NCBI GenBank assembly: GCA_965249555.1
Contig: OZ252243.1
Location: 992,001-1,056,000, forward strand
DNA length: 64,000 bases
Source of the DNA: Nitrosopumilus sp.
Lineage (GTDB): Archaea > Thermoproteota > Nitrososphaeria > Nitrososphaerales > Nitrosopumilaceae
Reading direction: 5' to 3'
Under the pieces are notes generated by a model. That model saw only the letters and a list, made by a program, of their open reading frames with translations. It was not told the origin of the DNA and ran no database searches. The translations under genes and the position numbers were made by a program. Of the stretch, positions 11,309 through 29,546 are shown piece by piece (positions within the stretch are counted from its first letter, which is position 1; each line of letters opens with the position of its first letter).

Positions 11309-12847
11309 TTAGATATATTTTCTAATTCCAATAATCACACTAGCTGGAATCCCAATATACATTCCAAAATTAAGTATGATTAAAGATATTCCATATCCTA
11401 GCACTTTAGTTTCTGAATCCATATCTACATAATTTAAAATTGAAAGAGAACTAATCATTGGAGTAATTCCAAGCTTAACTATCTCTTTGAAAACTGGATT
11501 TTCACGCTCATAATCTGCTATGTATGGACTAAATGAATAATAGAAATCATTGAATGTATTCATGAATGAAACCCCTGATTTTGAGTTTAGTAGTTTGTTA
11601 TCTCTGAGTTCTCTTAATTGTTGTACTTGTGAAGAAAGTTCTGAACCATATGTTGCAGTTGCAATTAAACATCCTCCTCCCTCTTCATTGAGTTCATTCT
11701 TAGAGGAGTCTTTGGATAATATTTCAAAAGAATCAATTGTTTCATCAAATCTTGGAAGTTGAGAATCAAATTCATCTATACCATTAGCATATGCAAGTGT
11801 GTAGAATTTTTCAGTATCATAAATTAAAACTTCTTTAAATTTTATATCAATTTTTTCGTTATTGGATAAAAAGAATCCTTCTGCATTAGTTACATATGCT
11901 TGATAATTATTGATGGTTGTTTTTTCCTGTGAAATTATCTTCAAGTTTTCTGATTCTTTTCCTTCAATTAATTCCTCAGCCTTTTCAGAAATAAGATCAT
12001 CTAGAGTTCTTTGGTTAGTTTGTTGAACTGTTAACGAAATTACAGGATTCATTGCACCGATCTTTGGTCCTACTGCAATTACATCAGGAGAGTTTTGTTG
12101 TATTTTATCAGGTTTCTGCAAGAACCAACCTTCTGGTGCACTAAATGTAGTTTCGAGTTCAGTGCTTTCAAATTTTTGATTACCAGTTGGCGGAGTTACA
12201 GTAGATTGTGTACGTTCAGGATCTGGTAATTCAAGAAGGTTTGACACCTCAGAGCGAGGAACAGTTGTGACCTTTGTTATTTTGACTTGTTCTGTGTCTA
12301 TGGGTATATCACTAGATCCTATTTCAACTGCTGCAATTTTATCAAGTGTTTCAAAACTTTCATCAGTTACAATTCTACCAAATACTGTATACTTTTCATC
12401 AAGGAAGTTAGAATCTTTGTGAACTATGAAAAATTGAGAACCAGCACTATTTGGATCAGCTGATCTTGCCATTGAAACAATTCCACGATTGTGTTTGATT
12501 GTGTTAAATTCAGCATCTACTCTTTCTGTTGGACCTCCTTGTCCCCAAGTACTTGGATCACCGTCTATTGTATTTGGATCACCTCCCTGAATCATAAATC
12601 CTGGAATTATTCGATGAAAGACAGTTCCATCATAAAATCCAGATACAGATAATTTAATAAAATTTTCAACATGATTTGGTGCATCATTATTGAAAAATTC
12701 TATTGTAATATTTCCAAGGTTAGTCTCTAAAATGACTACAGGATCAAGTATTTGAGTTTGAGTGATCTCAACTGATTGTGCAAATGCTTGATTTCCAACA
12801 CTAACTAAAATTAATGAAATTGTCATTGCCAAAAATATTTTATTCAA
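11309..12847 (-). CDS. Secreted cyclophilin-type PPIase with CFI-box-CTERM domain
   Basis: FHRIIPGFMIQGGDP, SMARSADPNSAGSQFFI; C-terminal GGGCLIATATYGSEL..LRELRD + TM. Confidence 0.92.
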   Translation of the reverse strand: MNKIFLAMTISLILVSVGNQAFAQSVEITQTQILDPVVILETNLGNITIEFFNNDAPNHVENFIKLSVSGFYDGTVFHRIIPGFMIQGGDPNTIDGDPSTWGQGGPTERVDAEFNTIKHNRGIVSMARSADPNSAGSQFFIVHKDSNFLDEKYTVFGRIVTDESFETLDKIAAVEIGSSDIPIDTEQVKITKVTTVPRSEVSNLLELPDPERTQSTVTPPTGNQKFESTELETTFSAPEGWFLQKPDKIQQNSPDVIAVGPKIGAMNPVISLTVQQTNQRTLDDLISEKAEELIEGKESENLKIISQEKTTINNYQAYVTNAEGFFLSNNEKIDIKFKEVLIYDTEKFYTLAYANGIDEFDSQLPRFDETIDSFEILSKDSSKNELNEEGGGCLIATATYGSELSSQVQQLRELRDNKLLNSKSGVSFMNTFNDFYYSFSPYIADYERENPVFKEIVKLGITPMISSLSILNYVDMDSETKVLGYGISLIILNFGMYIGIPASVIIGIRKYI

Positions 12848-12920
12848 CTATTTTTCACAAAGTGCCATACTTAAAAGCCAATTGTATTAGTTTTTAACAA
12901 AGCCAAGTAGATCAATCGAC

Positions 12921-13412
12921 ATGCAATCTGATGAGAAGATTCAAGCACATCTAGTTTCAATATGGAGAGAATCCAAAAAGTTCTTTTCAATTGGTGGAAA
13001 AGAGGGCATGTTAGTATTGACTGACAAACATTTGATGTTTGTATACAAGACAGAAGCCAGAATGAAGTGGTGGAAGGCTATTACTCAAAGACAGGTAATT
13101 AATTTTATCAAATCAAAAAACACGATGATTTATCATGATGGTTATGGTGAAGAAGAATTAATGGATGATTTAGAAAATGAGAAAAATATAGAGTTAGCAT
13201 TTGATGATATTTCCAATATTAGTTTTGAAGAAAAGATTTGGGGAAGCGCATTACTATTAGAATATGAAAAAGATGGAAAACAAGAAAAATTTCAATATGC
13301 AATAGCACAAGATTGGGTAAAATATCCTGTAAAAGAGCCTACAAAATTCATGAAGGTAGACTGGGAGCCTTTTGTGCAATATATTAAAGACAGACAAAGA
13401 TTTACGAAGTAA
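12921..13412 (+). CDS. Hypothetical protein (PH-fold-like)
   Basis: 163-aa ORF; GMLVLTDKHLMF. Confidence 0.75.
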   Translation: MQSDEKIQAHLVSIWRESKKFFSIGGKEGMLVLTDKHLMFVYKTEARMKWWKAITQRQVINFIKSKNTMIYHDGYGEEELMDDLENEKNIELAFDDISNISFEEKIWGSALLLEYEKDGKQEKFQYAIAQDWVKYPVKEPTKFMKVDWEPFVQYIKDRQRFTK

Positions 13413-13414
13413 AA

Positions 13415-14131
13415 TTGGGAAAAGTTTATGCTGTTGGTGTCGGGCCAGGTTCATCAAAATATGTAACTGAGATTGTAAAAGAAATTCTTCAGAATTGTGA
13501 TATTGTAATTGGTTACAAATACACACTAAAGACAATAGAGAATCTAATTGAAGGAAAAGAGATCTATGAAGTTACTATGAAAGATCAGGAAGAGTCCTAT
13601 CAAAAAATTCTTCCCAAGCTTGGCAATAAAACATTAGTAATTCCATTTACAGGAGATGTGAATTTTTCTGAATCAGAAGTTGTGGATAGATTAATTGAAA
13701 TTTTTGGTGAAGTTGAAATTATTCCTGGTATTAGTTCAATTCAGGTTGCTGCATCAAGAGCCAAAGTTCCTCTTGATAAATCTAAAATAATTACAATGCA
13801 TGTTACAACTCCGATTGAAGATAAGAAATTAGAATTACAAAAGGCATTGATTGATGGTTTTAGTGTGATTTTAGTTCCAAGACCTTGGCCAAAACAACCA
13901 GACAAGCACTTTATGCCTTCAGAGATAGCAGTTTACCTTCGAGAGCATAATTTTGATACTGCTCAAATGAAGGTACATGTTTTTGAGGCAATAACTACTG
14001 AAAATGAAACCAATTTTGTAGGAACTGTAAAAGATTTGGAAGAAAAAGAGTTTTCTGATTTGTCTGTAATGGTGCTTAATCAGGCAAGTTTGGATTCATA
14101 TATGAATTACAGATGGCAATGGGAAAATTAG
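13415..14131 (+). CDS. cbiE: Precorrin-6Y C5-methyltransferase CbiE
   Basis: VGVGPGS, TGDVNFS, IIPGISSIQVAA, FSDLSVMV tetrapyrrole methylase motifs. Confidence 0.82.
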   Translation: MGKVYAVGVGPGSSKYVTEIVKEILQNCDIVIGYKYTLKTIENLIEGKEIYEVTMKDQEESYQKILPKLGNKTLVIPFTGDVNFSESEVVDRLIEIFGEVEIIPGISSIQVAASRAKVPLDKSKIITMHVTTPIEDKKLELQKALIDGFSVILVPRPWPKQPDKHFMPSEIAVYLREHNFDTAQMKVHVFEAITTENETNFVGTVKDLEEKEFSDLSVMVLNQASLDSYMNYRWQWEN

Positions 14132-14400
14132 TTACCTAAGTTTTCTCCGTCATCAAAAACCAAATTATCTGAACTTGGGAAGACATATGCTACAATTTTC
14201 ATCCATTCATAATCTGGATCATACAGTCTGTAAAATCCCATATCATCAAATGTTATGTTAACTGATTCTCCTGGTGCAATATCTCCAGTTGAAATTCTTC
14301 CATCAGGAGTAAATGGAATATAACGATCACGGTTTTCTTTTCCACTAATAATACTGTGAGATACTTTATCATCATTTACTATTGTAATGGTAATACCTGT
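14128..14400 (-). pseudogene. 5'-truncated cupredoxin-like protein
   Basis: ITIVNDDKVSHSIISG..TGDIAPGESVNITF..G.Y cupredoxin pattern; no N-terminus or signal peptide; 5' boundary approximate. Confidence 0.55.
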
Positions 14401-14429
14401 CGTGTATGATATGTCCCACGCTGGCATGG

Positions 14430-14872
14430 TTATGGTAGAACTACTTTATGGTGATATTTTGATAATAGTTTCTGGGTTTTTTCTTGCTATTGATGTTAAT
14501 CTTTACAAGTTTGTAAGCAACAAAATAAGCTCACATAGAATAATGCAGCTTTGTTCATTTTCAGGAGGAGCGCTTGCTTTAGGAGTTATTTTTGTATTGG
14601 ACATGCCAATAGAAGTTAACTGGGATCAAATGATTCCAATCATTCTTGTTAGCATTCTTGGAGTAGGATTACCTACAATGTTTTTTCTTATTGCAATAAG
14701 ATTAATCGGTCCAGTTAAAACAATTCTTGTTTATTCTACTACATCGGTTTTTGGTTTAGGATTCGCTGCTTTGATATTAGGTGAAGAGTTTTCACATATA
14801 CATGGTATTTCTACAGCAATAGTAATTATAGTAATTTTCTTGTTAAGAAAAAGATTGGCAGCAAGTGAATAG
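14430..14872 (+). pseudogene. 5'-truncated EamA/DMT transporter (C-terminal repeat only)
   Basis: GDILII..., AIRLIGPVKT, FAALILGEEF single EamA repeat; 5' boundary approximate. Confidence 0.6.
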
Positions 14873-14877
14873 AGAAA

Positions 14878-15414
14878 TTATAATCCAGGCATTTCAAGGC
14901 CTTCTTGTTGGGCCAATTCTATCATGAAAAATTCAAGATATCCTCCTGCCAAAAGGAGCGCCACAACAATTCCAATTTCAATGACTGTTGGTTTGAGAAA
15001 TGAAGTAAGGTTGATCTTTTTAATTACTGCCTGAATTAGTATGAAACTTCTAGAGATGCCTATCGAGTATGCAACAATTTCCATCAGTCCAAATGGTGAT
15101 AAGAAAAGAATTGAGAGTGGTGGAATTTCTCCTATTTCAGGAACGGTAGAAACAATTGCGGCAAAAGCAAATCCTGTGGACCAAGCAGCAAAAAGTCCCC
15201 ATGCAACTCCAAACCCAGGAATAAACATGGGTAGTGCAATAGTGGTATTATGTGTGAAAATTCCAAATGCATCAATATCTAAAACAAGTTCTTCAAATTC
15301 AGCCATGAAGGCATTTGCATCTTCTTCACTTACAGAACTCATTGAGCCGATCTGAAATACTGCAGCAAAAATTCCTAAAAATATGAAAAATGTAATTATT
15401 CTAATTTTATTCAT
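14878..15414 (-). CDS. SpoIIM-family membrane protein
   Basis: IFTHN, PFGLMEIVAY, LAGGYLE. Confidence 0.8.
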   Translation of the reverse strand: MNKIRIITFFIFLGIFAAVFQIGSMSSVSEEDANAFMAEFEELVLDIDAFGIFTHNTTIALPMFIPGFGVAWGLFAAWSTGFAFAAIVSTVPEIGEIPPLSILFLSPFGLMEIVAYSIGISRSFILIQAVIKKINLTSFLKPTVIEIGIVVALLLAGGYLEFFMIELAQQEGLEMPGL

Positions 15415-15478
15415 ATTACCTTCTCATTTTGTACAATATTTGAGGGTTAGGTGTTAGGCACAGATTTAATTAAACCAG

Positions 15479-16939
15479 ATGATATTTTTTGATATGAAAA
15501 AGGAGTTAACCTTTGCATTAAACTATGCATTAAACAAAGGATTCCAGATTCATCCAGATGCTTTTAAAATTTTAGAAAATTTTGATGTTAAAAAATTAGA
15601 GAAGATCATAAAAGAGATAGTTAAAGAAAAAACCAAACAAAAATTATTTCAGATCAACCAAGATGATTTAGAGATATATCTTGGAATTAAGGAGGACCTA
15701 ACTCTACAAAGTGAAATTAAAATATTATCTGATCCTACGAAAAAAATAACAACAGGTGAGGGAGTTAAAGGGTATAATGCATTATTTTCAAGTCGTTTTA
15801 ACAAGCTTAAAAGAATAATTTTAGATAGACCAGAATCAAAAAAACTCAAATCTATTGCATCTTTGAAAATCACAAAACAAGAAGGAGATACGTACGTCTG
15901 TGGTCTTATCACTTCAATAATTAGTGAGAGAAATATCTCAAAGTTGACTCTAGAGGACCCATCAGGCTTGTTTGAGGGTATTGTTTTTGATAATGAATTA
16001 CAAAAGACTGCAGGCACTCTTCTAACTGACCAATTTGTAATGGTAAGGATAGGTTTAGGAAAGAATTCTGGATTTATTATAAAGGATATAATTCTGCCAG
16101 ATATTCCAGATCAGGCTATCAACAAATCAGAATCTGAAGTGTATGCAGTCTTTCTTTCAGATCTTCATATTGGAAGTAAGTACTTCATGGAGGAGGAATT
16201 TATGAAATTTGTTTTGTGGTTATCAAGCCCAGATCCAGTTGCAAGAAAAATTCGTTTTGTCTTAATTGGAGGGGATGTAGTTGATGGAGTTGGAATATAT
16301 CCAAATCAGGATAAAGAGTTGGTTTGCCAGACCATTGAAGAGCAATTAAAAAAGACAGTTGGTTTGATTGAAAAGATTCCAAAAAATATCAAGGTCATTA
16401 TAATGCCTGGAAACCATGATCCTGGAAGAAGAGCCCTCCCACAGCCAGCCATACCAAAAAAATACAATTCAAGTTTATGGGAAATGGAAAATGTAGTAAT
16501 GGTTGGAAACCCAGCCGTAGTTTCATTGAACGGGGTAAAGATAATGATGTTTCACGGACAGAGTATTGATGATATTGTAAAGACCACACCTGGTCTAAGT
16601 TATGACAAACCAACAAATGTAATGAAACATCTTCTCAAGGCTAGACATCTAAGTCCAATTTATGGTAGTCAAACACCCATAGCCCCAGAGATGGAGGATC
16701 TTTTGGTAATTGAGGATATTCCAGATATCTTTCATGTAGGTCATGTTCATAGAGCAGAATTGGATATGTATAAGGGAATTTTATTGGTAAATTCGGGTTC
16801 ATGGCAAAAACAAACACCTTTCCAGGCTAGTGTTGGAATGACTCCGAACCCAGGAATTGCACTTATGGTAAATCTAAAAACTTTCCAAGTTCATTATGAA
16901 AATTATAATTTAGAGTTAGATAATATCCTTCAAAGTTAG
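15479..16939 (+). CDS. polD1: DNA polymerase D small subunit DP1
   Basis: SDLHIGS, GDVVDG, PGNHD, FHG, GHVH phosphoesterase motifs; OB fold. Confidence 0.95.
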   Translation: MIFFDMKKELTFALNYALNKGFQIHPDAFKILENFDVKKLEKIIKEIVKEKTKQKLFQINQDDLEIYLGIKEDLTLQSEIKILSDPTKKITTGEGVKGYNALFSSRFNKLKRIILDRPESKKLKSIASLKITKQEGDTYVCGLITSIISERNISKLTLEDPSGLFEGIVFDNELQKTAGTLLTDQFVMVRIGLGKNSGFIIKDIILPDIPDQAINKSESEVYAVFLSDLHIGSKYFMEEEFMKFVLWLSSPDPVARKIRFVLIGGDVVDGVGIYPNQDKELVCQTIEEQLKKTVGLIEKIPKNIKVIIMPGNHDPGRRALPQPAIPKKYNSSLWEMENVVMVGNPAVVSLNGVKIMMFHGQSIDDIVKTTPGLSYDKPTNVMKHLLKARHLSPIYGSQTPIAPEMEDLLVIEDIPDIFHVGHVHRAELDMYKGILLVNSGSWQKQTPFQASVGMTPNPGIALMVNLKTFQVHYENYNLELDNILQS

Positions 16940-18124
16940 ATCGTTTTTGAAGGTCTTTTTTATCATTTCAGATGAGATCGTAAGTTTGTATTTTTTTGTT
17001 CTACCATGAATTCCTTGGTGGACCAGTCTTCCAATAATGATTCCAGATAATTCAATTTCACTCAACATTTGTGTAGTTCTTCTTTGGGTTAGCTCATCCC
17101 GGCCAACTGTCTTGCAGAGATTTTTGTATGATGAGTAAATCTCTCCAGTTGAAGAGCCATTTGCCTTCATAATTGCAAGAATGACTAGTTTTTCATGAAG
17201 GGGATATGATTTTAGCGAGGTTTCCTCTTTGTTTTCTTCAATTTTTAGAGAAGCTTCTCTGACATGTTCAACTGTAACTTTGTTTGATTGTTGTCTTTCA
17301 GCAATCTCTCCTGCGACACGGATCAAATCAATTGCCCTACGAGCATCACCATGTTCTCCTCCTGCAAGTGCCGCACATAGATTTAGGGCAGGATCCTCAA
17401 CAGAATTCTCTACAAAGGCTTCGTTAATTCTCTCTTCAAGAATTGTTTTAATTTGTTCAACATTATAGTTGGTAAAGACAATCTCTTCCTCGCCAAGACT
17501 GCTAATTACTCTAGGATCTAGTCTTTCTTTGAATGTTAGATCATTTGAAATTCCCACCAAAGTTAGGGAACCTTGTTTTAATCGCTCATTTGCTCTTGTT
17601 AGTTGATATAAGATGTCTTTACCTGTTTTTGATACTAATTGGGCTAGATAGTCAATCTCATCAATTACAAAAATTGCGTTAAGTTTTCCTTCATCAATCT
17701 TATTGAGGAGTCTTTTGAAAACCTCACTTATTGCTAGGCCAGTTGTGGGTAATTCCTCCTTTCCTAGGTCTAATTGCCTGCCTAAACTAACTAATAATCC
17801 ATAGAGGGTTGTCTCTTCTTTAGAGTTGGAATAAACTAGTTTAATTGGGAAATTTGATTTTTCTACTCTTTCTTGAATTTTAGAAATTACTTTTTTTACA
17901 ACTAATGTTTTACCTATTCCAGGTTTTCCATAAACCAAAAGATTTGATGGTCTTGATTGTTTTAGTATTGGTAATAGTGATTGTGTAACTTGTTCTTGTT
18001 CAGAAGTTCTGTGTTGTATGGTATTTGGTATGTAGGTTGTTTGAAGAATATCTCTATTTTTTATTATAGATTCACCTGATTCTGCTGCATCAAGTAATCT
18101 ATCTATTGGATCAGACATACTCAC
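16916..18124 (-). CDS. cdc6: Orc1/Cdc6 replication initiator
   Basis: YGKPGIGKT, VIDEID, GDARRAIDL, C-terminal wH GIHGRT. Confidence 0.96.
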   Translation of the reverse strand: MSMSDPIDRLLDAAESGESIIKNRDILQTTYIPNTIQHRTSEQEQVTQSLLPILKQSRPSNLLVYGKPGIGKTLVVKKVISKIQERVEKSNFPIKLVYSNSKEETTLYGLLVSLGRQLDLGKEELPTTGLAISEVFKRLLNKIDEGKLNAIFVIDEIDYLAQLVSKTGKDILYQLTRANERLKQGSLTLVGISNDLTFKERLDPRVISSLGEEEIVFTNYNVEQIKTILEERINEAFVENSVEDPALNLCAALAGGEHGDARRAIDLIRVAGEIAERQQSNKVTVEHVREASLKIEENKEETSLKSYPLHEKLVILAIMKANGSSTGEIYSSYKNLCKTVGRDELTQRRTTQMLSEIELSGIIIGRLVHQGIHGRTKKYKLTISSEMIKKTFKNDLTLKDII

Positions 18125-18265
18125 ACACCTTTGTTTCCTATCAATAATATCATAACCATATCTAAATTAAGAGAGTAAAGAAGAGAACAATAACTCTAGC
18201 TTAGTTTGTAATTAATTATTTTTAGTTAGATTTTGATTTTCTTAAAAAAAAATTATAAAAAATAC

Positions 18266-18289
18266 AGAGTGGAAAGATTGGTGTGTGGG
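18266..18289 (+). promoter_or_regulatory. ORB-like box 1
   Basis: AGAGTGGAAAGATTGGTGTGTGGG. Confidence 0.6.
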
Positions 18290-18365
18290 TTGAATCTAAA
18301 TTTTACCTTAAAGTTAACATTTTGTTAATATCCTGCTATGGAATTATATAAAAAACCTATTTTGA

Positions 18366-18386
18366 CCCTTTAATTTCCATTCCAGG
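18366..18386 (-). promoter_or_regulatory. ORB-like box 2
   Basis: Minus strand CCTGGAATGGAAATTAAAGGG. Confidence 0.75.
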
Positions 18387-18427
18387 CGTTAAGATTGATG
18401 TTAACACTGTGAATATGCTTGAAACAA

Positions 18428-18447
18428 CCCCTTTATTTCCACTCCAA
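18428..18447 (-). promoter_or_regulatory. ORB-like box 3
   Basis: Minus strand TTGGAGTGGAAATAAAGGGG, close to archaeal ORB GTGGAAA-n-AAGGGG. Confidence 0.8.
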
Positions 18448-18608
18448 GCATAAATATTTCTTAATTAGAGGGGATTTTACATGAGATGTTGTTAATAATA
18501 AAAATATGACTAGGCGTGGCTTATGCAGTCAATGTTAACAAACAATCTAGTTAACAAACATTCTCGGATCAATTGAACTGTTAACATCTGATCCTTTAGA
18601 TCTCAAAG

Positions 18609-18995
18609 ATGGCTAAAAAACGTATTCGAATAGATATGGAGGACACAGATGGTGCACGATTTGACATCAAAATAGAAGGTAATGTCACCAGGGAAAAGGT
18701 TCTCAAAATATTTGAAATGATGGACTTGATGAATATTGAGGAAGAACACGAAACAACAAACATGGACTCAGTAGGCTCAAAAATTTGGCATATTGTGGAT
18801 AAATTCTTCCCAATGGGTAAATTTACCTCCACGACTATTCTTGAAAAATACGAAGATGAATTCAACGAACCAGTAAAACTTAGTGTAATATCGACCTATT
18901 TGTCACGTTTTTCATCAAAAGGTAGGATTGATAGGGTTAGAACAGGTCGTGAATGGACCTATCAAACCATTAAGATAAGCCAAAAACAACAATAA
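18609..18995 (+). CDS. Origin-adjacent protein with predicted C-terminal winged helix
   Basis: FTSTTILEKY..LSVISTYLSRFSSKGRIDRVRTGREWTY wHTH pattern. Confidence 0.8.
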   Translation: MAKKRIRIDMEDTDGARFDIKIEGNVTREKVLKIFEMMDLMNIEEEHETTNMDSVGSKIWHIVDKFFPMGKFTSTTILEKYEDEFNEPVKLSVISTYLSRFSSKGRIDRVRTGREWTYQTIKISQKQQ

Positions 18996-18999
18996 CCGA

Positions 19000-19161
19000 T
19001 TAAGAAATGGTTATTTTCCTAACAATTAACTGATCTTTTCCAAGAATCAACTTTACATATTCACCTTTTTGAATATCCATGTATTTTCTAAATTGTTTTG
19101 GAATAGAAATTGTCCCGGCTGAAGTGATTTTTACCAAAACTTCATTCTCTTGAACAGACAT
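19000..19161 (-). CDS. AbrB/MazE/SpoVT-family DNA-binding protein, not in ORF track
   Basis: Manual translation, 53 aa: MSVQENEVLVKITSAGTISIPKQFRKYMDIQKGEYVKLILGKDQLIVRKITIS. Confidence 0.88.
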   Translation of the reverse strand: MSVQENEVLVKITSAGTISIPKQFRKYMDIQKGEYVKLILGKDQLIVRKITIS

Positions 19162-19276
19162 ATTATTATTATAATTTTATAATATATATAATTTATAATT
19201 AATAATAAATTATTATGTTTCCATGAAAATTTGAATGAAAGGACAAAAATCTATTATGGTAAACTAAAAAAATTTC

Positions 19277-19879
19277 TTATGCAATAATTGGGTTAGTTTG
19301 AACGTCTTCAACCTTTGCTTTTCCCTTCTCAGTAATTGAATATGTGTATGGTTTAGTTTCTATATTTCTTTGAACATAACCACCATCAAATAATTTCTTC
19401 ATTAATCTTGAAGTATGTTCCCTACTTCTCTTTAATGTGATGTGTATGTCACGTGATGTCATAGTTTTGTTTGTGATTAATTGCAACACATAATCTGTTG
19501 GGTTTGTGTGATCTATACTAGAAATATTGGGTGTGGAAATTAGTTTTTCAGACCTTATTTTAGGTTGAATTACTTTTTCTACATTATTTTCTTCTGCTTT
19601 GTTATTTAACAACTTTTCTAAGAGTTGTTTTAATTCTAACTTAGAATCCTCTGTTTTAGGCTCAATTCCTTGAATTTCTAATGCATCTAGGCGTATTTTC
19701 ATATCAATTAACTGCCTTTCGTAGTACTCTAAACGCTCAGATTGTGGAACATCAGACATTTCACTTTTTGATTTAATGAATGGAAGTACTTTGTAAAACA
19801 CATACAATCCACCTAAACCAACTACAAATGCTAAAATCACACTCAAAATCACTTCAGGATCAGGAATTTCTACTAACAT
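19277..19879 (-). CDS. Membrane-anchored coiled-coil + winged-helix protein
   Basis: TM VILSVILAFVVGLGGLYVFY; coiled coil ERLEYYERQLIDMKIRLDALE; wHTH MTSRDIHITLKRSREHTSRLMKKLFDGGYV..Y.ITEKGK. ATG 19879 preferred. Confidence 0.85.
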   Translation of the reverse strand: MLVEIPDPEVILSVILAFVVGLGGLYVFYKVLPFIKSKSEMSDVPQSERLEYYERQLIDMKIRLDALEIQGIEPKTEDSKLELKQLLEKLLNNKAEENNVEKVIQPKIRSEKLISTPNISSIDHTNPTDYVLQLITNKTMTSRDIHITLKRSREHTSRLMKKLFDGGYVQRNIETKPYTYSITEKGKAKVEDVQTNPIIA

Positions 19880-20126
19880 CACAAATTTACGCCTATGTTG
19901 TGATTTATCGTGATTGAACAACATTATTTCACACTTTAGATTAACATACTGACACACATAATCACAAACACATCAACTACTTTTTGATATTTATCATCAC
20001 AAATATCACATATTACATGCCTTTCGAATAGTCATATCTATCACCCTAGTGATTTGTTCTTCTCTTTCTGGGAAGATATCACCATCATTCATCACACGAA
20101 TGTTCTCTGAAAGTTTGGATATCACA
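19436..20126. repeat. Dense ATCAC/GTGAT motif array (17 copies)
   Basis: Starts at 19437, 19453, 19473, 19508, 19836, 19848, 19878, 19900, 19910, 19961, 19996, 20005, 20040, 20049, 20078, 20091, 20121. Confidence 0.85.
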
Positions 20127-20368
20127 TCAATATCATCAGGTAAGAGTATGCCTAGACCGCGAAAAAGTATAATTGAATAGAATAATGCGATTAATTTCTC
20201 TCTAGATTGCCCAACTTGCCTATAATATGCTCCTCTTGTTATAGGAAATTTAGATTCTAGAAGATCCTTCTGATTTAAAATAATTTTAATTTGTCGCTCT
20301 GTAAATAGAGATTTTTTGATGATTTGGCGAATAATATTGTTAAAATTAGATTCTTTAGAGTCTGCCAT
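20006..20368 (-). CDS. Hypothetical protein with HTH-like N-terminus
   Basis: SLFTERQ..ITRGAYYRQVGQSREKL resembles a sigma-r4/LuxR-type HTH. Confidence 0.75.
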   Translation of the reverse strand: MADSKESNFNNIIRQIIKKSLFTERQIKIILNQKDLLESKFPITRGAYYRQVGQSREKLIALFYSIILFRGLGILLPDDIDVISKLSENIRVMNDGDIFPEREEQITRVIDMTIRKACNM

Positions 20369-20433
20369 AGCTATACAAATCTGTATACTGACATTCCAAT
20401 TAAACTTTAAAGAGTCATCTACAAACCTCCACT

Positions 20434-21186
20434 ATGACTGGAAACAAAGTTGAATCGTTCCTAAAATCAGAATTAAAAAAGAAAAACGCATTGTTATTTG
20501 TTTTAATTGATTCTGAAGTATCACAATTACAGGCATCAAGCAAGCTTGCCAAAGATGTTGAAAAGATTGGTGCATCTGCAATCTTGGTTGGAGGCTCCTC
20601 AGCCACTGATCAGATTGAGATGGCTCAAGTGGTTAAAGGCATCAAAAAAGGTATTAAAATTCCAATAATCTTGTTTCCTGGAAATGTCACAGGCGTTGTG
20701 CCTGATGCTGATGCAATCCTATTTAGCTCCCTAATGAACTCAGAAAATCCATACTTTATCACACAAGCACAAGCATTGGGAGCCCCAAGTGTTCTCAAAT
20801 TTGGTTTAGAACCACTTCCAACCGCTTATTTGGTGATTGGAGATGGAACCTCAGCTTGGTTTGTTGGTTCTGCACGAGGAATTCCTTTTGAAAAACCAAA
20901 AATTGCTGCTGCATATGCCCTTGCCGCTCAATTTCTTGGAATGAGATTTGTATATTTAGAAGCAGGTTCTGGTGCAAAAACTAGTGTTACTCCAGAGATG
21001 GTCAAAACAGTAAGGCGTGCTTTTAATGGATTCTTGATAGTAGGAGGAGGAATCAAAGATGTAAAAACTGCCCAAAACTTGGTCAAAGCAGGAGCCGATG
21101 CTTTGGTAATTGGTACATTCCTTGAAAAAGGAGGAAGCATCAAAAAACTCCAAGAAATAGCAAAAGTAATTCAAAGAAGCAAGTAG
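20434..21186 (+). CDS. Geranylgeranylglyceryl phosphate synthase
   Basis: ILVGGS, ILFPG, YLEAGSGA, IVGGGI, VIGT. Confidence 0.93.
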   Translation: MTGNKVESFLKSELKKKNALLFVLIDSEVSQLQASSKLAKDVEKIGASAILVGGSSATDQIEMAQVVKGIKKGIKIPIILFPGNVTGVVPDADAILFSSLMNSENPYFITQAQALGAPSVLKFGLEPLPTAYLVIGDGTSAWFVGSARGIPFEKPKIAAAYALAAQFLGMRFVYLEAGSGAKTSVTPEMVKTVRRAFNGFLIVGGGIKDVKTAQNLVKAGADALVIGTFLEKGGSIKKLQEIAKVIQRSK

Positions 21187-21198
21187 TAGAATTGTATC

Positions 21199-24100
21199 AT
21201 GTCAGATAACGATGCAATTTCTCGTATTAGTGATATTAAGATGCCAGATTATTATCATGATTACTACTCAAATCTTTCAAGTGAAACAGTTTCCATCTTT
21301 GAGAAAGCAGCAGTTGCAAAATCAAGTTTGGTAGACTCTTCAGGTATAATTGAACCTAAAATCGCATTTGATTTGGCAGATCGTGTTTCCAAAATGCACG
21401 AAATTGATATTGCTGAACCTCTTAGAGAACTACTAAAAACAAACGGGAAGGAACTCTCTGCACTTATTTTATCAAAAGAAATTGCTCTTGGTGAATACTC
21501 TCTTTCTGATGCTACCTTAGAAGACAAACTAGATCTTGCAGTTCGTGTAGGGTTAGCCATTGTTACAGAAGGAGTAACCATCGCGCCTTTACAGGGAATT
21601 AGTGAAGTAAAAATCAAGAAAAACAAAGATGGCACTGAGTATCTTTCAGTTTCTATTGCAGGACCTATGCGTTCAGCAGGAGGAACAGAATCTGCTGTAA
21701 CAATGTTAATTGCAGACCATGTTAGAAAAGCAGTTGGTTTAACAAAATACCAAGCAAATTCATTTGATGATGAAACTGGTAGATTTGTAGAGGAATTACG
21801 AATCTATGAAAGAGAGGCCAGTAGTTTTCAATTTCATATTTTAGATGAAGATATCGAACATGTCATTTCTCACCTTCCAGTCGAATTAGATGGAGTAGAT
21901 ACGGATCCATTTGAGGTTGTAAATCACAAATCAATGATTCGCATCAAAACTGATAGGGTTAGAGGTGGCGCTTTACGTGTCTTAAATGATGGATTGATTG
22001 GAAGATCCAAAAAACTTCTCAAAAGGATTGAACTATACAATCTAGATGGTTGGGAGTGGCTTAATGATCTTAAAGGTGTAGTTCAAACAGGTGAAAATCA
22101 GGAAGACGCAGCTGCTAAAAGAATGCGTGAAGTAATTACAGGAAGATCAGTCTTATCTATGCCTAAAAAGTTAGGTGGATTCCGATTAAGATATGGAAGA
22201 GCATGTAATACAGGCTTTGCAGCAGTTGGAATTCATCCCGTAGTAGGTGAAATTTTAGATCATACCATAGTTGTAGGAACACAAATCAAAATTGACATTC
22301 CAGGAAAAGGAGCAACTATTGCTTTTGTTGATTCTATTGATACTCCAATAGTTCGCCTAAAAAATGGCAATGTTGTAAAGATTAGAGACATTAAACATGG
22401 ATTAGAAATTAAAAATGAAATTGAAAAAATCCTACACTTGGGAGATATACTAATTTCATTTGGAGACTTTCTTGAAAATAATGCTCAACTTATTCCTTCA
22501 GGGTATGTTGAAGAATTTTGGATAGAGGAACTAAAACAAAAAATCCAAAAATATGAACCTGATGATCAGTATCTAAAACAATTTCTGACTAGAGTACCCA
22601 CAATAGATGAGGCACTGAAAATTTCCCTTGACTTTCAAATTCCACTTTATCCACATTATCTATATTTCTGGGATAAAATCTCATCAAAAGAACTTGGTCA
22701 ACTTTTAGAACCAAAACAAGTTACTGAAACATCAATTGAATACTTTGTGGAAATAAAAAAAATCCTTGAAAAATTGGGCACTCCTCATAAAGTTGAAAAT
22801 GAAACTATAGTCCTAGAAAATCTAGAGGCAAAAATTTTCTTTAATTTATTGTTTAGAGAAAAACCAACAATTAGTGATTTGTCAGTTCCAAAAATTTTAA
22901 CAAAATCATCAGGAATTCAAATTAAAAATAAATTTTCAACATCTATTGGGGTTCGAATTGGAAGACCTGAAAAAGCAGCTGCTAGACAAATGAAACCTCC
23001 TACACACATATTATTTCCAATTAGTGACAAAGGAGGACCTACCAGAGATCTTCTAAAGGCATCAAGAAATGAACACTTCTTTACTAACATATTCAATAGA
23101 CATTGTGACCAATGTAATGAACCCTCTATAGGCATCAAGTGCTCTAGATGTGGCACTAAAACAACAATTTACTACAAATGTTCTAACTGTAGAGACACTC
23201 TTACTGAACCATATTGTGAAAAATGTAAACGCAAAGTACAAACTCACTCACACAAAGAATTTCCACTAAAAACAAAATTACTATCAGCTCAGGAAAAAAT
23301 GGGATTACGTGTCAAAGAACCATTCAAAGGCGTCAAAGAGCTAATTAATCAAGATAGAATTGCTGAACCTCTAGAAAAAGGAATTACACGTCAAAACTTT
23401 GGGCTTACAGTCTTCAAAGATGGAACTGTTAGGTTTGATGCAACAAATTCTCCCTTAACCCAATTCAAACCATCATGGATTGGAACATCGATAGAGAAAC
23501 TAAAGGGGCTTGGATATTTTCACGACATAGATGGGAAACCACTTACAAACTTAGAACAGATTGTTGAACTTCGTATGCAAGATGTGATAATTCCGTATGA
23601 TAGTGGAAATTATTTGGTTTCTACTTGTAAATACATTGATACTCTTTTAGTGAAATTCTATGGAAAATCTTCATTTTACAATGTAAAGAATACTGAAGAG
23701 CTTATCGGCCATCTAGTAATTGGCTTAGCTCCACATACTTCTGTTGGAATAGTAGGACGAATCATTGGATATACTGAAACACATGTTTGTTTTGGAACTC
23801 CAAACTGGCACTCTGCAAAAAGAAGAGATGCTGATGGTGATGCTGATTCTATTATGCTTCTTATGGATAGCTTACTTAATTTCTCAAGACAATTTCTTTC
23901 TGATAGAATAGGTGGGCTAATGGATGCTCCATTACTTGTGCAACCTCTAGTTTTACCACATGAATCTCAACCACAAGCACACAATCTTGAAGTCACAAAG
24001 TATCTTCCTTTAGAATTCTTCGAGTCCACATTTCAACAGAACAAAGCATCAGATATAACATCTGTAGAAATTATCAAGTCACGTCTTGAAACTGAAAGGC

Positions 24101-24576
24101 AATTTTATGATTATTTCTTTACACATTCAACTTCATCACTAACCACTTCAAAATCTCGTAGTGCCTACTCTACACTTGGCTCAATGCTTGACAAATTTGA
24201 TATGCAAATTAGAAATGCTGAATTAATTGATGTGGTAAATCCTTCAGAAATTGTTTCAAATGTCATTTCAACACATCTGGTTCCAGATATTATGGGAAAT
24301 CTTAGAGCATACGCTAGACAAAACTTTAGGTGCACAGGTTGTGGAAAATCATTCCGTCGGATGCCTCTAATTCAAACATGTGTATGTGGTCATAAACTAA
24401 TTCCTACAATTACCAGAGGCTCTGTTGAAAAATATCTAAAACTTGCAAAAAGACTTGTTGAGAAATATGATGTTGGTGAATATCAAAGAGGAAGAATTCA
24501 TGCTCTATCAGACGAAATTGAATTAGTATTTGGTAAGAGTAAAGGAGACCAATCACTTCTTACTGATTACGCCTAG
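21199..24576 (+). CDS. polD2: DNA polymerase D large subunit DP2
   Basis: AGPMRSAGGT, GGFRLRYGR, FKDGTVRFD, AKRRDADGDAD, C-terminal Zn finger; no intein seen. Confidence 0.97.
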   Translation: MSDNDAISRISDIKMPDYYHDYYSNLSSETVSIFEKAAVAKSSLVDSSGIIEPKIAFDLADRVSKMHEIDIAEPLRELLKTNGKELSALILSKEIALGEYSLSDATLEDKLDLAVRVGLAIVTEGVTIAPLQGISEVKIKKNKDGTEYLSVSIAGPMRSAGGTESAVTMLIADHVRKAVGLTKYQANSFDDETGRFVEELRIYEREASSFQFHILDEDIEHVISHLPVELDGVDTDPFEVVNHKSMIRIKTDRVRGGALRVLNDGLIGRSKKLLKRIELYNLDGWEWLNDLKGVVQTGENQEDAAAKRMREVITGRSVLSMPKKLGGFRLRYGRACNTGFAAVGIHPVVGEILDHTIVVGTQIKIDIPGKGATIAFVDSIDTPIVRLKNGNVVKIRDIKHGLEIKNEIEKILHLGDILISFGDFLENNAQLIPSGYVEEFWIEELKQKIQKYEPDDQYLKQFLTRVPTIDEALKISLDFQIPLYPHYLYFWDKISSKELGQLLEPKQVTETSIEYFVEIKKILEKLGTPHKVENETIVLENLEAKIFFNLLFREKPTISDLSVPKILTKSSGIQIKNKFSTSIGVRIGRPEKAAARQMKPPTHILFPISDKGGPTRDLLKASRNEHFFTNIFNRHCDQCNEPSIGIKCSRCGTKTTIYYKCSNCRDTLTEPYCEKCKRKVQTHSHKEFPLKTKLLSAQEKMGLRVKEPFKGVKELINQDRIAEPLEKGITRQNFGLTVFKDGTVRFDATNSPLTQFKPSWIGTSIEKLKGLGYFHDIDGKPLTNLEQIVELRMQDVIIPYDSGNYLVSTCKYIDTLLVKFYGKSSFYNVKNTEELIGHLVIGLAPHTSVGIVGRIIGYTETHVCFGTPNWHSAKRRDADGDADSIMLLMDSLLNFSRQFLSDRIGGLMDAPLLVQPLVLPHESQPQAHNLEVTKYLPLEFFESTFQQNKASDITSVEIIKSRLETERQFYDYFFTHSTSSLTTSKSRSAYSTLGSMLDKFDMQIRNAELIDVVNPSEIVSNVISTHLVPDIMGNLRAYARQNFRCTGCGKSFRRMPLIQTCVCGHKLIPTITRGSVEKYLKLAKRLVEKYDVGEYQRGRIHALSDEIELVFGKSKGDQSLLTDYA

Positions 24577-24578
24577 AA

Positions 24579-25901
24579 CTATCTCAGTTTGACGTACTCG
24601 TAAGCACCTAATTTGTTATCAAAACAGAATTTGACTTTTTGATAGTTTTTTCTTAATGCCTTAACTTTTGGAAGTATCTTTTTTGGATCCTTTTTCTCAA
24701 TAACTACTTGTTTAATGAAAGATGCAATTTCTTGCATCTCATTCTTTTTCATTCCAAGTCGTGTTATTTCAGAAACTCCTAATCTAATTCCACTAGGATG
24801 AAAATAATTTCTTCCTGCCTTAATATCACCTGGAATGAGTTGTCTGTTAACTATGATGTTAGCTTTTTCTAAATCTGCTTCTACTTTTCCACCATCAGAA
24901 TAATCTAAAACATTAACTGCAATCTGATGTGATTCTGTAAATCCTCTACTTTCTCCTAATACCTTGAATCCCATATCATGCAAAGTCTCTGCAAACAACT
25001 TTGCATTTTTTATGACCTGAGTTGCATAGTCTTTTCCAAACTCTAAAGCCTCTGCAAAAGCAACTGCTTTTCCAGCCATATGATGAATGTGGTGGCTACT
25101 TGTAAGGCCCGGAAACGTTGCTTTTTTGATAACCTCTTCATGTTCTTTAGATCCGAGAACAAGTCCTCCTTGAGGTCCAAACAAAGTCTTATGAGTACTC
25201 ATAGTCATAGTATCTGCGCCTTCACGTAGAGGGTCTTGGAATTTTCCACCAGCAATTAATCCAGCAACATGAGCTGCATCATAATTGATGTGCATATCAT
25301 AACTCTTTAGAAAATCTGATAATTCTTTGACAGGATGTGGAAATAAGAATAATGAACCACCAAACATTGCCATCTTTGGAAGACGACCATCTTTTTTTAG
25401 AGTCTTTATTTTTTGTTTTGTCTTATCTACATCAATTGTCATTTCTTCAGCATTAAATGGATAGAACTCTATCTCTAATCCATGAACTAGACCAGCAGTT
25501 CCAAAATGCTCCTTTTTACCATGTGATATGTGACCACCTGCAGGAATAGAAGGTGCTAGCATTACATCACCTGGATTGGTAAAAGAAGAATACACTATAA
25601 GATTTGCAACAACTCCTGAAGTTGGTCTTACATCAGCAAATTTTGCTTTGTACAATTTTTTAGCCAACTTCATACATTCAAATTCTACATCATCAATGTA
25701 GATACATCCAGCATACACTCTCTCCCCAGGCCATCCTTCAGCATACCTATTTCCAAAATCTGAGATTATAGCTTCTCGAACAGCAGGACTTGGAATATTC
25801 TCACTTGCAATTAATGGAATTGAATTTTCAAACCATTTGTGATGTTCCTTTAATTTAGCGAAAATCTTATTGTAAGATTCTTTATTTTGTGACTTGGCCA
25901 T
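24579..25901 (-). CDS. glyA: Serine hydroxymethyltransferase
   Basis: LIASEN, YAEGWPGERVYAG, STHKTLFGPQGG. Confidence 0.96.
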   Translation of the reverse strand: MAKSQNKESYNKIFAKLKEHHKWFENSIPLIASENIPSPAVREAIISDFGNRYAEGWPGERVYAGCIYIDDVEFECMKLAKKLYKAKFADVRPTSGVVANLIVYSSFTNPGDVMLAPSIPAGGHISHGKKEHFGTAGLVHGLEIEFYPFNAEEMTIDVDKTKQKIKTLKKDGRLPKMAMFGGSLFLFPHPVKELSDFLKSYDMHINYDAAHVAGLIAGGKFQDPLREGADTMTMSTHKTLFGPQGGLVLGSKEHEEVIKKATFPGLTSSHHIHHMAGKAVAFAEALEFGKDYATQVIKNAKLFAETLHDMGFKVLGESRGFTESHQIAVNVLDYSDGGKVEADLEKANIIVNRQLIPGDIKAGRNYFHPSGIRLGVSEITRLGMKKNEMQEIASFIKQVVIEKKDPKKILPKVKALRKNYQKVKFCFDNKLGAYEYVKLR

Positions 25902-26004
25902 ATTTTGAAATTTGATTTTCCCAATTTAAAAACACCGATGCTGCCTCAAATTTTCATATTCTGATCTGCAAGGTATAAAAGGGGAATCTGGAGTTTCAGC
26001 ATTT

Positions 26005-27699
26005 ATGGGTATGCAAGCCACTTCCAAAGGAAATATGCCAGTTGTATTGCTAAAGGAAGGCGGTTCAGAAACCAAAGGCAGAGATGCACAAAAGAATAAC
26101 ATTGCTGCATGCAAAATTGTTGCCGAAATTGTTCAAACCAGCCTAGGTCCACGAGGCATGGATAAAATGCTAGTTGACTCCTTGGGAGATGTTACTATTA
26201 CCAATGATGGTGCAACTATCCTAAAAGAAATTGATGTTCAACATCCAGCTGCAAAAATGCTAGTTGAAATTTCTAAAACTACAGATAATGAAGTTGGAGA
26301 TGGCACAACTTCAGTTGTTGTATTGGCAGGTGCTTTACTTGATAACGCTGAATTATTAATTGATCAAGATGTTCATCCAACAATTATTGTTGATGGTTAT
26401 AGAAAATCTGCAAAAAAGGCAAAACAGTTTCTTGAAAGTATTGCTGACCAAGTATCTGCAAATGATAAAAACATTCTAACTAAAATCGCAAAAACCTCAA
26501 TGCAAACTAAACTTGTTAGAAAGGACTCTGATCAACTCGCAGATATTGTTGTAAAATCTATTCTTGCTGTTTCAGAAAAAGATGGTGAAACTTACAGTGT
26601 TGATATTGATGATATTAAAGTAGAAAAGAAGGCTGGAGGCTCTATCAAAGACACGACGATTATTCAGGGAATTGTTCTTGATAAAGAAATTGTTAATGGA
26701 GGAATGCCTACAAAAATCACTGAAGCTAAAATTGCATTAATTAATACCGCATTAGAAATTAGCAAAACTGAAACTGATGCAAAAATTAACATTTCTAATC
26801 CTCAACAACTAAAATCATTTCTAGATGAAGAAAACAGAATGTTAAAGACAATGGTTGACAAAGTCATTGGCTCTGGGGCAAATGTAGTTTTATGTCAAAA
26901 AGGTATTGATGATATGGCTCAACATTATCTAGCAAAAGCTGGAATTATTGCAGTTAGAAGAATTAAAGAAAGTGATCTTGAAAAACTTGCAAGAGCAACA
27001 GGTGCAAGAATAGTTACAAACCTTGATGATCTTTTTGAAAAAGATCTAGGTAGTGCAGATCTTGTTGAAGAAAGAAAAATTGAAGAAGACAAATGGGTAT
27101 TTGTTGAAGGCTGCAAACATCCAAAATCAGTTACCTTGCTTCTTCGTGGAGGCTCACAAAGAGTAGTTGATGAAGTTGAACGCTCTGTTCATGATGCACT
27201 AATGGTTGTAAAAGATGTAATGGAAAATCCTTCAATTGTTGCAGGCGGCGGTGCCCCTGAGACATATGCTGCAACTAAACTAAGAAGTTGGGCAAAATCT
27301 CTAGAAGGAAGAGAACAATTAGCTGCTGAAAAATTTGCTGATGCTTTAGAATCAATTCCATTAACACTTTCTGAAAATGCTGGAATGGATCCAATTGATA
27401 CAATGACATATCTTCGCTCAAGACAACAGAAAGGAGAGAAATGGACTGGAATTGATGTTATGAAAGGAAAGATCTCTAATATGAAATTAAGTGATATTAT
27501 TGAACCACTTACAGTTAAACTTCAAATTGTATCTGCAGCTTCTGAAGCTGCATGTATGATTCTTAGAATTGATGATGTAATTGCTACCCAAAAATCTGCT
27601 GGTGGTCCACCTGGCGGAGGAGAAGGAGGTATGCCACCTGGTATGGGTGGAATGCCACCTGGTATGGGTGGAATGCCTGATATGGGCGGAATGATGTAA
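26005..27699 (+). CDS. ths: Thermosome (group II chaperonin) subunit
   Basis: [20 protein letters not shown]-rich tail. Confidence 0.96.
27631..27677 (+). repeat. 21-bp tandem repeat x2 in chaperonin GGM tail
   Basis: ATGCCACCTGGTATGGGTGGA twice plus ATGCC. Confidence 0.9.
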
Positions 27700-27755
27700 A
27701 TCATTTTGAAAAATTTCTTTAAAAGTTTATTTGATAATTACATTCACGAACAACA

Positions 27756-28034
27756 TTGAATAAAACATCATCCAAAATACTTACTAGTTTCAAGTACGTT
27801 TACCTAGTTGCATTTTTTACATTACTTGCTGGATTCTTTTATCCACTAATTACTAACACAAGTTTTGATGGTGTAATCATTGGCGTTTTGATATTATTTA
27901 TGGGTCTTGCTGGTGGAGTCTTATTGTATAGAGCTGCTACATCTGAAAAGTGGAGAGGAATATATCTAGGAGGGGGATTTGCTCTGATGGCGGTTTCATT
28001 ATTTTGTATCTTTCAGCTTACTGGAAGAGCCTAA
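27756..28034 (+). CDS. Small 3-TM membrane protein
   Basis: 92-aa hydrophobic ORF. Confidence 0.75.
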   Translation: MNKTSSKILTSFKYVYLVAFFTLLAGFFYPLITNTSFDGVIIGVLILFMGLAGGVLLYRAATSEKWRGIYLGGGFALMAVSLFCIFQLTGRA

Positions 28035-29491: not shown

Positions 29492-29546
29492 TTTTTTTAC
29501 TTCAATCAAACACAAATACACCCAGCATTTAAGGATTAGGTAAGAA

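Follow-up and report, generated by a model that had tools for sequence, protein, structure and literature searches.

Autoregulators of the MarR, TrmB and Lrs14 types are winged-helix proteins of bacteria and archaea whose genes carry binding sites over their own TATA/start region, in the form of one or two palindromes. In the bacterial plasmid pSM19035, the parS site consists of WATCACW heptad repeats in direct and inverted orientation, which overlap promoters and serve as both operator and centromere, according to excerpts of the source (PMC9499535). Here, we analyzed a 64,000-nucleotide stretch of the chromosome of the archaeon Nitrosopumilus sp. (GenBank assembly GCA_965249555.1, contig OZ252243.1). 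This stretch, hereafter the window, covers positions 992001-1056000 of a single-contig, 2.23-Mb genome with 34% G+C. Close to the predicted replication origin, it contains an array of short ATCAC(A) words laid over the genes of a 200-amino-acid (aa) winged helix-turn-helix (wHTH) protein with a predicted membrane anchor and of a 120-aa partner protein. Selection on this array at the DNA level, on top of the coding sequence, is strongly supported. We give roughly even chances to the reading that it is a multi-site autoregulatory operator array bound by the membrane-anchored wHTH protein. Positions refer to the window unless genome positions are stated, and the main features are as follows.

19836..20125, 10 sites on the + strand and 3 on the - strand: proximal ATCAC(A) array of 13 sites
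19437..19512, all sites on the - strand: distal ATCAC cluster of 4 sites (19437, 19453, 19473 and 19508), inside the wHTH-coding part of the gene of the 200-aa wHTH protein
19277..19879, - strand: gene of the 200-aa protein, with a predicted N-terminal transmembrane helix, coiled coil, disordered linker and C-terminal MarR-like winged helix
20006..20368, - strand: gene of the 120-aa protein, predicted to be all-helical, the conserved partner of the wHTH gene
19900..19914, - strand: putative core promoter for the wHTH gene, with a TATA-like element, ATAAA(T), located some 28 nt 5' of the ATG

As in the MarR-type autoregulators, the gene of a winged-helix regulator has sites over its own TATA/start region. 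The locus differs in that 17 short half-sites, mostly direct and many of them coding, are spread over 690 bp, in that the protein carries a membrane anchor and a coiled coil, and in that the locus is fixed beside the origin across the class (Nitrososphaeria). By analogy, the array may work most like a MarR-type autoregulatory operator expanded to an iteron-like array. Literature searches, which covered main texts, found no paper describing the array or either protein.

The initial annotation, made from the sequence alone, had counted 13 and 4 sites in both orientations, and our site listing gave the same numbers. The proximal sites start at 19836, 19848, 19878, 19900(-), 19910(-), 19961, 19996, 20005, 20040, 20049(-), 20078, 20091 and 20121. 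They extend from the final 120 bp of the 120-aa gene across the 126-bp intergenic promoter region into the initial 45 bp of the wHTH gene. Five sites are located within the terminal 120 bp of the 120-aa gene and one more on its stop codon (site 20005 on TGA 20006-20008), and two proximal sites lie 30-45 bp into the wHTH gene. Site 19878 falls on the ATG (19877-19879) of the wHTH gene, which is a real start used by most relatives. The overlaps with a start and a stop codon had both been pointed out beforehand, as had the inverted pair ATCACCCTAGTGAT at 20040 and TCACGTGA at 19449, both of which are present. Centre-to-centre spacings of the proximal sites are 12, 30, 22, 10, 51, 35, 9, 35, 9, 29, 13 and 30 bp, and no two sites are spaced 7 bp apart. 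The distal cluster is positioned about 400 bp within the wHTH gene. The extension to ATCACA, described earlier for many copies, occurs in 11 of the 17 sites. Otherwise the flanking bases contribute little; A follows the core in 31/50 sites of four other genera, compared with 34% genome-wide, and G is disfavored immediately 5' of the core.

The local density of ATCAC is extreme. On average, 300 bp of the genome contain 0.79 sites (2.62 per kb), in agreement with the earlier estimate of fewer than one site per 290 bp by chance. An unbiased strand-symmetric k-mer scan of 19830-20130 returned ATCAC as the top 5-mer (13 vs 0.79 expected, Poisson P 3.5e-12) and ATCACA as the top 6-mer (8 vs 0.26 expected). 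The word is not enriched over the whole window, where 156 sites compare with 146.9 +/- 13.7 in shuffles. In a sliding 300-bp count across the genome, a check that the initial annotation had called for, only two places held more than seven sites: the array (13) and genome position 2058057 (14). The latter lies outside the window and reflects 14 perfect copies of a 21-bp ATCAC-containing unit within an open reading frame (ORF) at genome position 2058075-2058350, which encode a 7-residue tandem protein repeat. Apart from this tandem repeat, the genome does not reach a comparable density, the first of the two outcomes that the initial annotation had named as refuting. It contains no second ATCAC array, only scattered pairs or palindromes. 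Separately, a doubled palindrome, ATCACTAGTGAT-ATCACTAGTGAT, is located at genome position 761538-761561, also outside the window, and overlaps the ATG of a 169-aa ORF by 2 bp; it is likely an operator, bound by a different regulator whose half-sites have the same letters.

The proposal that the word is selected as DNA, made in the initial annotation, is supported by a codon null, by retention in relatives and by recurrence across lineages. The motif is written with codons that are indeed rare in this genome: GTG makes up 11% of Val codons, ATC 18% of Ile codons and CAC 27% of His codons. When both protein sequences were fixed and synonymous codons were redrawn from genome usage, 2.69 coding-sequence sites were expected, compared with the 11 observed (P 5e-5), and each gene alone gave P of about 0.002-0.003. 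Neither cdc6 nor the neighboring 128-aa gene has an excess of ATCAC under the same null. When each gene's own codons were shuffled, the wHTH gene gave P 0.008 and the 120-aa gene 5 sites vs 3.36 (P 0.13), the latter suggesting that the overall codon choice of the 120-aa gene is shifted, beyond mere codon placement. The motif is also built from differing residue pairs and in different reading frames (V-I, V-M, G-D, I-T and T-S-R).

An alignment of 24 genomes of the genus, in which the 120-aa proteins share 58-96% identity, revealed no free synonymous turnover of the sites, the outcome that had been named as a possible refutation. In total, 15 of the 17 sites are kept in at least 0.73 of the relatives. 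Among the proximal sites, 12/13 are retained in at least 0.74 of the 23 relatives, the exception being 20049, which is on the + strand in most relatives. Among the distal sites, 3/4 are retained in 0.73-1.0 of the relatives and 19508 in 0.04. Motif retention exceeds that of background 5-mers in the wHTH gene (0.74 vs 0.29), in the 120-aa gene (0.77 vs 0.43) and in the intergenic region (0.89 vs 0.28). Third codon positions are conserved at 0.85 and 0.95 inside the motif vs 0.69 and 0.78 outside it (P 0.007 and 0.002); the relatives are kin, so these retention P values are overstated, while their direction is clear. Even if it serves an autoregulator only, the array is an unusually clear case of a binding-site-type array kept within coding sequence at synonymous positions.

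The same arrangement recurs far beyond the genus. Four other genera have the same gene order and ATCAC clusters at the same junction, with 28-36% identity of the 120-aa protein and a G+C content of 25-44%. Palindromes of the type GTGAT-N0-3-ATCAC are found in other genera, e.g., GTGAT-AT-ATCAC. In these four genera, the wHTH gene also carries a second cluster, 250-470 bp into its sequence, over a part that encodes a poorly conserved linker. Over five genera, the two clusters are oppositely biased in strand (17/24 distal sites on -, 32/43 proximal sites on +; Fisher P 6e-4). We further fetched 20 deep-branching loci of the class, about 10 kb each, regardless of the motif. The locus includes cdc6 in 18/20 of these, and a hidden Markov model of the 120-aa protein matches the ORF adjoining the wHTH gene in all 20. 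In 19/20, the ATCAC density of the two-gene cassette exceeds that of the remaining locus. When the 20 loci were pooled, ATCAC came out on top of all strand-symmetric 5-mers in a comparison of cassette and flanks (140 vs 48.1 expected, P 4e-27), followed by TATCA, TCACA and ATATC, which suggests an extended motif of roughly ATATCACA. The enrichment recurs in lineages of 25-59% GC with unalignable linkers.

The wHTH family was detected in 111 of 121 genomes sampled across the class, a tally that counts one unpublished genome (G141), which entered no other part of the analysis. It was not found in any of the six genomes searched from one family (f22). In two loci of this family, cdc6 and the 128-aa gene are present, and the wHTH/120-aa pair and the cluster are both absent (best 300-bp count 3); these loci serve as a natural negative control. 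Of 52 genomes from other classes of the phylum, 30 contained a member of the wHTH family (E <= 1e-5). Ten of the 12 loci fetched from these classes had an ORF match, and around the gene start ATCAC was the top 5-mer in three of the ten (L097, L098 and L102) and second in one (L095), with no enrichment in the other six. The cassette is found beside cdc6 in other genera and other classes as well. When the wHTH alignment was used to search viral contigs, a single marginal locus emerged from 60 pattern matches, and on this basis an origin from mobile elements was rejected. The array element is ancient and tied to the gene of the membrane-anchored wHTH protein beside the origin.

The wHTH protein has Pfam matches to HTH_27 (8.5e-6, above its cut-off) and TrmB (4e-4), and a profile search of the PDB returned MarR at only E 0.025. 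The AlphaFold2 (AF2) model predicts a helix at residues 8-38, helices at 46-70 and 79-95, disorder at 96-125 and a wHTH domain at 127-195 with a predicted local distance difference test score (pLDDT) of about 90. Residues 127-195 matched MarR, ArsR, PadR and AspA in Foldseek at E 8e-5 to 3e-3, and the matches include DNA complexes (ZitR, MepR and MarR). The hydrophobic helix 8-38 is preceded by about seven residues and followed by lysines; the Kyte-Doolittle maximum is 2.59 at residue 10, and the N-terminus is hydrophobic in at least 17 of 21 homologs. The recognition helix (S/T-R-E-H) is invariant in all 21 sequences. The protein has neither the dimerization helices nor the ligand pocket of MarR, and dimerization would have to come from the predicted coiled coil. 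It resembles the membrane-bound regulators of the ToxR/CadC kind, having a DNA-binding domain and a transmembrane helix in one chain. Those proteins have a sensor domain and an N-terminal OmpR-type wHTH, whereas the present protein has only about seven residues outside the membrane and a C-terminal wHTH. ArnR in Sulfolobus is a membrane-bound one-component regulator. In contrast to such regulators, the only strong site cluster in this genome is at the wHTH protein's own gene.

Two ATCAC sites bracket the ATAAA(T) element at 19900-19914, and a third sits on the ATG. The surrounding block, tgtgatttatcgtgat, is near-invariant in the 24 genomes, and distant loci have the same layout; we infer that the element functions as a promoter. 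A bracketed TATA-like element with a site on the ATG would be expected if a leaderless archaeal transcript had its promoter blocked by the protein that it encodes. We propose that the ATCAC(A) words are half-sites of a sequence-specific DNA-binding protein, most probably the MarR-like winged-helix protein of the 19277-19879 gene, with its membrane anchor and coiled coil. In this scheme, several dimers would occupy the sites that bracket the TATA-like element of the wHTH gene and the site on its start codon, and the occupied sites would extend about 250 bp upstream into the end of the neighboring gene and 45 bp downstream. The second cluster, of opposite orientation, is located about 400 bp inside the wHTH gene. 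The resulting large autoregulatory nucleoprotein complex would repress or tune transcription of the wHTH gene and, if the protein is held in the membrane, would keep origin-proximal DNA at the cell membrane. The array, the selection on its DNA, its joint occurrence with the two genes and the domain composition of the protein are shown by the analysis; we infer the identity of the binder, the position of the promoter, repression and tethering.

The wHTH protein is favored as the reader because the sites track the wHTH gene where the gene order differs and because its S/T-R-E-H helix is invariant like the DNA word, whereas the corresponding helix of the 120-aa protein is variable. In loci with a divergent 120-aa gene (L074, L078, L082 and L086), the sites stay at the start and promoter of the wHTH gene, and in family f21, with 1-4 cassette sites, one is an ATCACA just upstream of the wHTH start. 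The occurrence of both orientations and of GTGAT-N0-3-ATCAC palindromes fits a DNA-binding dimer better than a signal in RNA, against which the mixed site orientation also speaks. Several points weigh against autoregulation by the wHTH protein. The 120-aa protein is equally syntenic (20/20 loci) and could be the reader or a co-binder. Seventeen sites over 690 bp far exceed what a simple MarR-type operator needs, and most are direct, with one inverted pair only (20040/20049), whereas MarR dimers usually read palindromes. The promoter and transcript start of the wHTH gene are predictions. Finally, ATCAC is outside the top two 5-mers in 6/10 other-class loci that have the gene family (L099-L101 and L103-L105).

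The partner protein of 120 aa has no significant Pfam or NCBIfam match, and its 2583 homologs are all unnamed ("hypothetical"). Its AF2 model (pLDDT 83) has five helices. Foldseek against the PDB gave nothing at E <= 0.001, and a wide structure search reached Z <= 6.2, mostly with generic helical hairpins, and we do not claim a new fold. A LuxR-type DNA-binding domain (7vim) is a weak fold match with Z 5.8 over residues 19-77, and the Atlas lead is Sigma70_r4 at 0.82. The protein possibly consists of a LuxR/sigma-r4-like helix-turn-helix (HTH) and a helical hairpin at the C-terminus. Lineages with the same ATCAC word differ widely in its putative recognition helix. A protein-protein prediction of wHTH residues 40-200 with the 120-aa protein scored 0.00, which weighs neither for nor against binding. 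Directly upstream of its gene is a further element:

20372..20387: palindrome TATACA-N4-TGTATA, TATACAAATCTGTATA, conserved in the genus

This palindrome sits in the 65-bp divergent region common to the 120-aa gene and the gene of GGGP synthase (GGGPS). The strict pattern TATACA-N4-5-TGTATA was found in 8/28 loci of different lineages, with near-variants recognized by eye in about 10 more, and the palindrome differs where the helix of the 120-aa protein differs. It is a candidate operator of the 120-aa protein and may couple this protein to a lipid-synthesis gene. Control of GGGPS through ATCAC was rejected, since the 65-bp region holds the TATACA palindrome and no ATCAC.

The surroundings of the cassette are those of a replication origin:

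15479-16939, + strand: PolD small subunit
16916-18124, - strand: orc1/cdc6 initiator (Pfam Cdc6_lid 1.8e-24, Cdc6_C 2.3e-19, and AAA)
18125-18608: origin-type intergenic region of 484 bp between orc1/cdc6 and the 128-aa gene
18609-18995, + strand: 128-aa weak winged-helix protein (Penicillinase_R at 0.004), conserved beside cdc6
19000-19161, - strand: 53-aa AbrB/SpoVT-like protein
20434-21186, + strand: GGGPS
21199-24576, + strand: PolD large subunit
29547-30104, + strand: Gins51

Sites of the origin recognition box (ORB) type have a consensus with a GTGGAAA-like core and occur as inverted copies on either side of an AT-rich region next to orc1/cdc6. Inverted ORB-like GTGGAAA elements are present at 18264-18290 on the + strand and at 18377-18398 and 18428-18450 on the - strand. 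The genome has a single copy of cdc6. The maximum of the cumulative GC skew is located at genome position 1,025,036 (window position about 33000), 13 kb from the cdc6/ORB locus, and the minimum at the opposite pole, at genome position about 1947. Pelve et al. (2013) reportedly mapped the origin of N. maritimus and may describe repeats of the origin region. In N. maritimus, ORB repeats precede the cdc gene, as stated in an excerpt of PMC5797428. Because of this statement, the ORB-like elements, the single cdc6 and the GC skew, we take 18125-18608 as the origin; the array is outside it, at a distance of 1.3-2 kb.

The initial annotation had read the array as centromere-like or as a site of nucleoprotein spreading. 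Its core, an array of the protein-binding type under DNA-level selection, is supported here, whereas for the label no ParA-type partner was found among the 16 neighboring proteins scanned. Since the sites cluster around the start and promoter of the wHTH gene, also in lineages with a different gene order, autoregulation through an operator array is the more economical description. Because of the membrane anchor and the fixed position at the origin side, we nevertheless kept a tethering or centromere-like role under consideration. In this alternative, the binder is the same and the main role of the array would be to attach or position new origins at the membrane, not transcription, which we regard as unlikely though not negligible. 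The conserved N-terminal membrane helix of the likely binder (predicted at residues 8-38) speaks for it, as do the constant place of the cassette beside cdc6 and the number, spread and two opposed clusters of sites, which resemble iteron-type centromeres overlapping their own promoters. The 13 proximal sites moreover share a helical phase with a period of 10.6 bp (R 0.74; P 0.0016 over periods 10-11 and 0.009 over periods 8-14), which would place them on the same helix face. This phasing was not reproduced in 13 more distant loci (combined P 0.31) and is shared only by the genus's own divergent members; it was therefore rejected as a general array property and kept as a genus-level observation only. 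Against a centromere-like role, some lineages keep the gene with 1-4 sites only, and the family is nearly absent from viral and mobile contigs, where partition cassettes are common. The attachment of the origin to the membrane is itself an assumption. A combined version, in which the array is an archaeal chromosomal handle, the wHTH protein binding this one-sided, bipartite array, tethering the origin to the membrane and doubling as its own autoregulator, also appears doubtful to us.

Known partition systems offer partial parallels to such a role. SegAB is a segregation system of archaea. The AspA-ParB-ParA system of the Sulfolobus plasmid pNOB8 likewise has an archaeal winged-helix, site-specific binder that organizes a larger nucleoprotein structure, and AspA structures (5k5q and 4rs8) are among the fold matches of the wHTH protein at E about 1e-3 (about 9e-4 for the archaeal centromere binder), though the match is generic for wHTH folds. 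AspA nucleates on one palindrome and then spreads, whereas the ATCAC array consists of many discrete sites. In Pfam scans of the 16 neighboring proteins (11309-30104), we found no ribbon-helix-helix (RHH) protein, no ParA/MinD- or ParA/SegA-type ATPase, no ParBc match and no ParB-like adaptor beside the wHTH gene, which sets the locus apart from ParB/parS partition, where a ParB with an N-terminal CTPase domain and an HTH acts on a 16-bp palindromic parS together with ParA. The sole small beta-type DNA binder among them is the 53-aa AbrB/SpoVT-like protein. The likeness of the wHTH protein to H. pylori Spo0J (E 0.027) is at the HTH level, with an alignment confined to the helix-turn-helix. The parS site of pSM19035 shares the letters WATCACW with the array (excerpts of PMC9499535). 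The omega repeats are 7-10 contiguous heptads, whereas spacings in the array are 9-51 bp; omega is an RHH ParB with a ParA partner on a bacterial plasmid, whereas the array is on an archaeal chromosome. The common letters are most likely a coincidence.

The 120-aa HTH-like protein might instead read ATCAC, alone or with the wHTH protein, in which case the array would control read-through into the wHTH gene. The five sites in the last 120 bp of its gene and the one on its stop codon, its place next to the wHTH gene in all deep loci and a model that suggests an HTH with a dimerizing hairpin all fit this idea. We still find it rather improbable, given that its putative recognition helix varies while the DNA word stays constant, that loci with a divergent 120-aa gene have their sites at the wHTH gene and that its own start is preceded by a different palindrome, which changes as its helix changes. 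The 128-aa protein is also unlikely to be the ATCAC reader, being located beside cdc6 in two loci without the wHTH/120-aa pair or an ATCAC cluster.

As an accessory element of the origin, the array would be bound by Orc1/Cdc6 or by a factor like UBP/ucm and would modulate initiation, a role that we consider very unlikely. It is near the only cdc6, the ORB-like repeats and the GC-skew extreme, and is flanked by the replication genes for both PolD subunits and Gins51. As shown in excerpts of Dhanaraju et al. 2025 (PMC12141716), an archaeal origin can strictly require a motif other than the ORB. As in the UBP/ucm system of the Sulfolobales, described in the same excerpts, a short non-ORB word is tied to an archaeal origin and would be read by a small dedicated protein. 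There, ucm is a single 11-bp element within the unwinding region and UBP has >300 binding sites in the genome (PMC12141716, excerpts), whereas the array is unique in the genome and lies 1.4 kb outside the ORB region. The ATCAC sites have no GTGGAAA-like core and lie 1.0-2.0 kb from the ORB-like elements, and are thus neither ORB nor mini-ORB; the elements of that type lie 1.4 kb away in the expected intergenic region. The array is inside and between genes and not in the AT-rich unwinding region, two f22 loci keep cdc6 and the intergenic region without it, and the repeated non-ORB word within the origin region is TGTTAAC instead. That the array has no function and is a by-product of amino-acid sequence, codon bias or local duplication has a negligible probability in our view. 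The own-codon shuffle of the 120-aa gene does remove part of the excess, as this explanation would have it; the codon-resampling nulls, the highest retention in the non-coding part, the varied residue pairs and reading frames and the recurrence over a wide range of GC with unalignable linkers all contradict it.

We know of no account of how the single-origin chromosome of ammonia-oxidizing archaea is organized, positioned and segregated, nor of any described segregation machinery in Cdv-dividing archaea of this kind. Beyond Orc1/Cdc6, the only accessory factor of archaeal origins known to us is UBP in the Sulfolobales. The present locus provides a defined pair that very deep divergence has left at a distance of about 2 kb or less from the origin. 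One member is a cis-element, (A/T)ATCAC(A), whose roughly 17 sites form two clusters of opposite orientation; the other is the candidate reader, the membrane-anchored winged-helix protein, whose recognition helix is invariant. If the protein is an autoregulator only, the pair is still an entry point to a conserved, uncharacterized pair of regulators. Should it tether DNA to the membrane, it would, to our knowledge, be a device without described precedent in archaea, and as a chromosomal handle it would be an origin-anchoring or segregation device for Cdv-dividing archaea that doubles as its own autoregulator. Dhanaraju et al. 2025 ask, in the excerpted text, whether other lineages have analogs of UBP (PMC12141716).

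The origin region itself has further features. With an origin at cdc6, the polarity of the skew runs contrary to the bacterial rule and implies a C-rich leading strand. The intergenic region contains eight copies of GTTAACA at 18320-18600, beside the ORB-like elements (0.06 expected, P 6e-15). TGTTAA or GTTAAC is the top 6-mer of the same region in 10/20 loci of relatives, and in four loci (L070 and L079-L081) ATTCAC is the top 6-mer, followed by TGTGAA or AGTGAA. The GTTAACA array may be bound by the adjacent 128-aa protein or by a different origin factor. In the gap from the AbrB-like gene to the wHTH gene's end, about 55 bp (19162-19215) consist almost entirely of A and T and contain overlapping palindromes. 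This run is either the AbrB-like gene's promoter or an element prone to unwinding. No AbrB-like 53-aa gene was seen in the cassettes that we examined from other genera. The ends of the PolD small-subunit ORF (+) and orc1/cdc6 (-) are convergent and overlap by 24 bp, and the PolD subunits, orc1/cdc6 and Gins51 form an island of replication genes around the origin.

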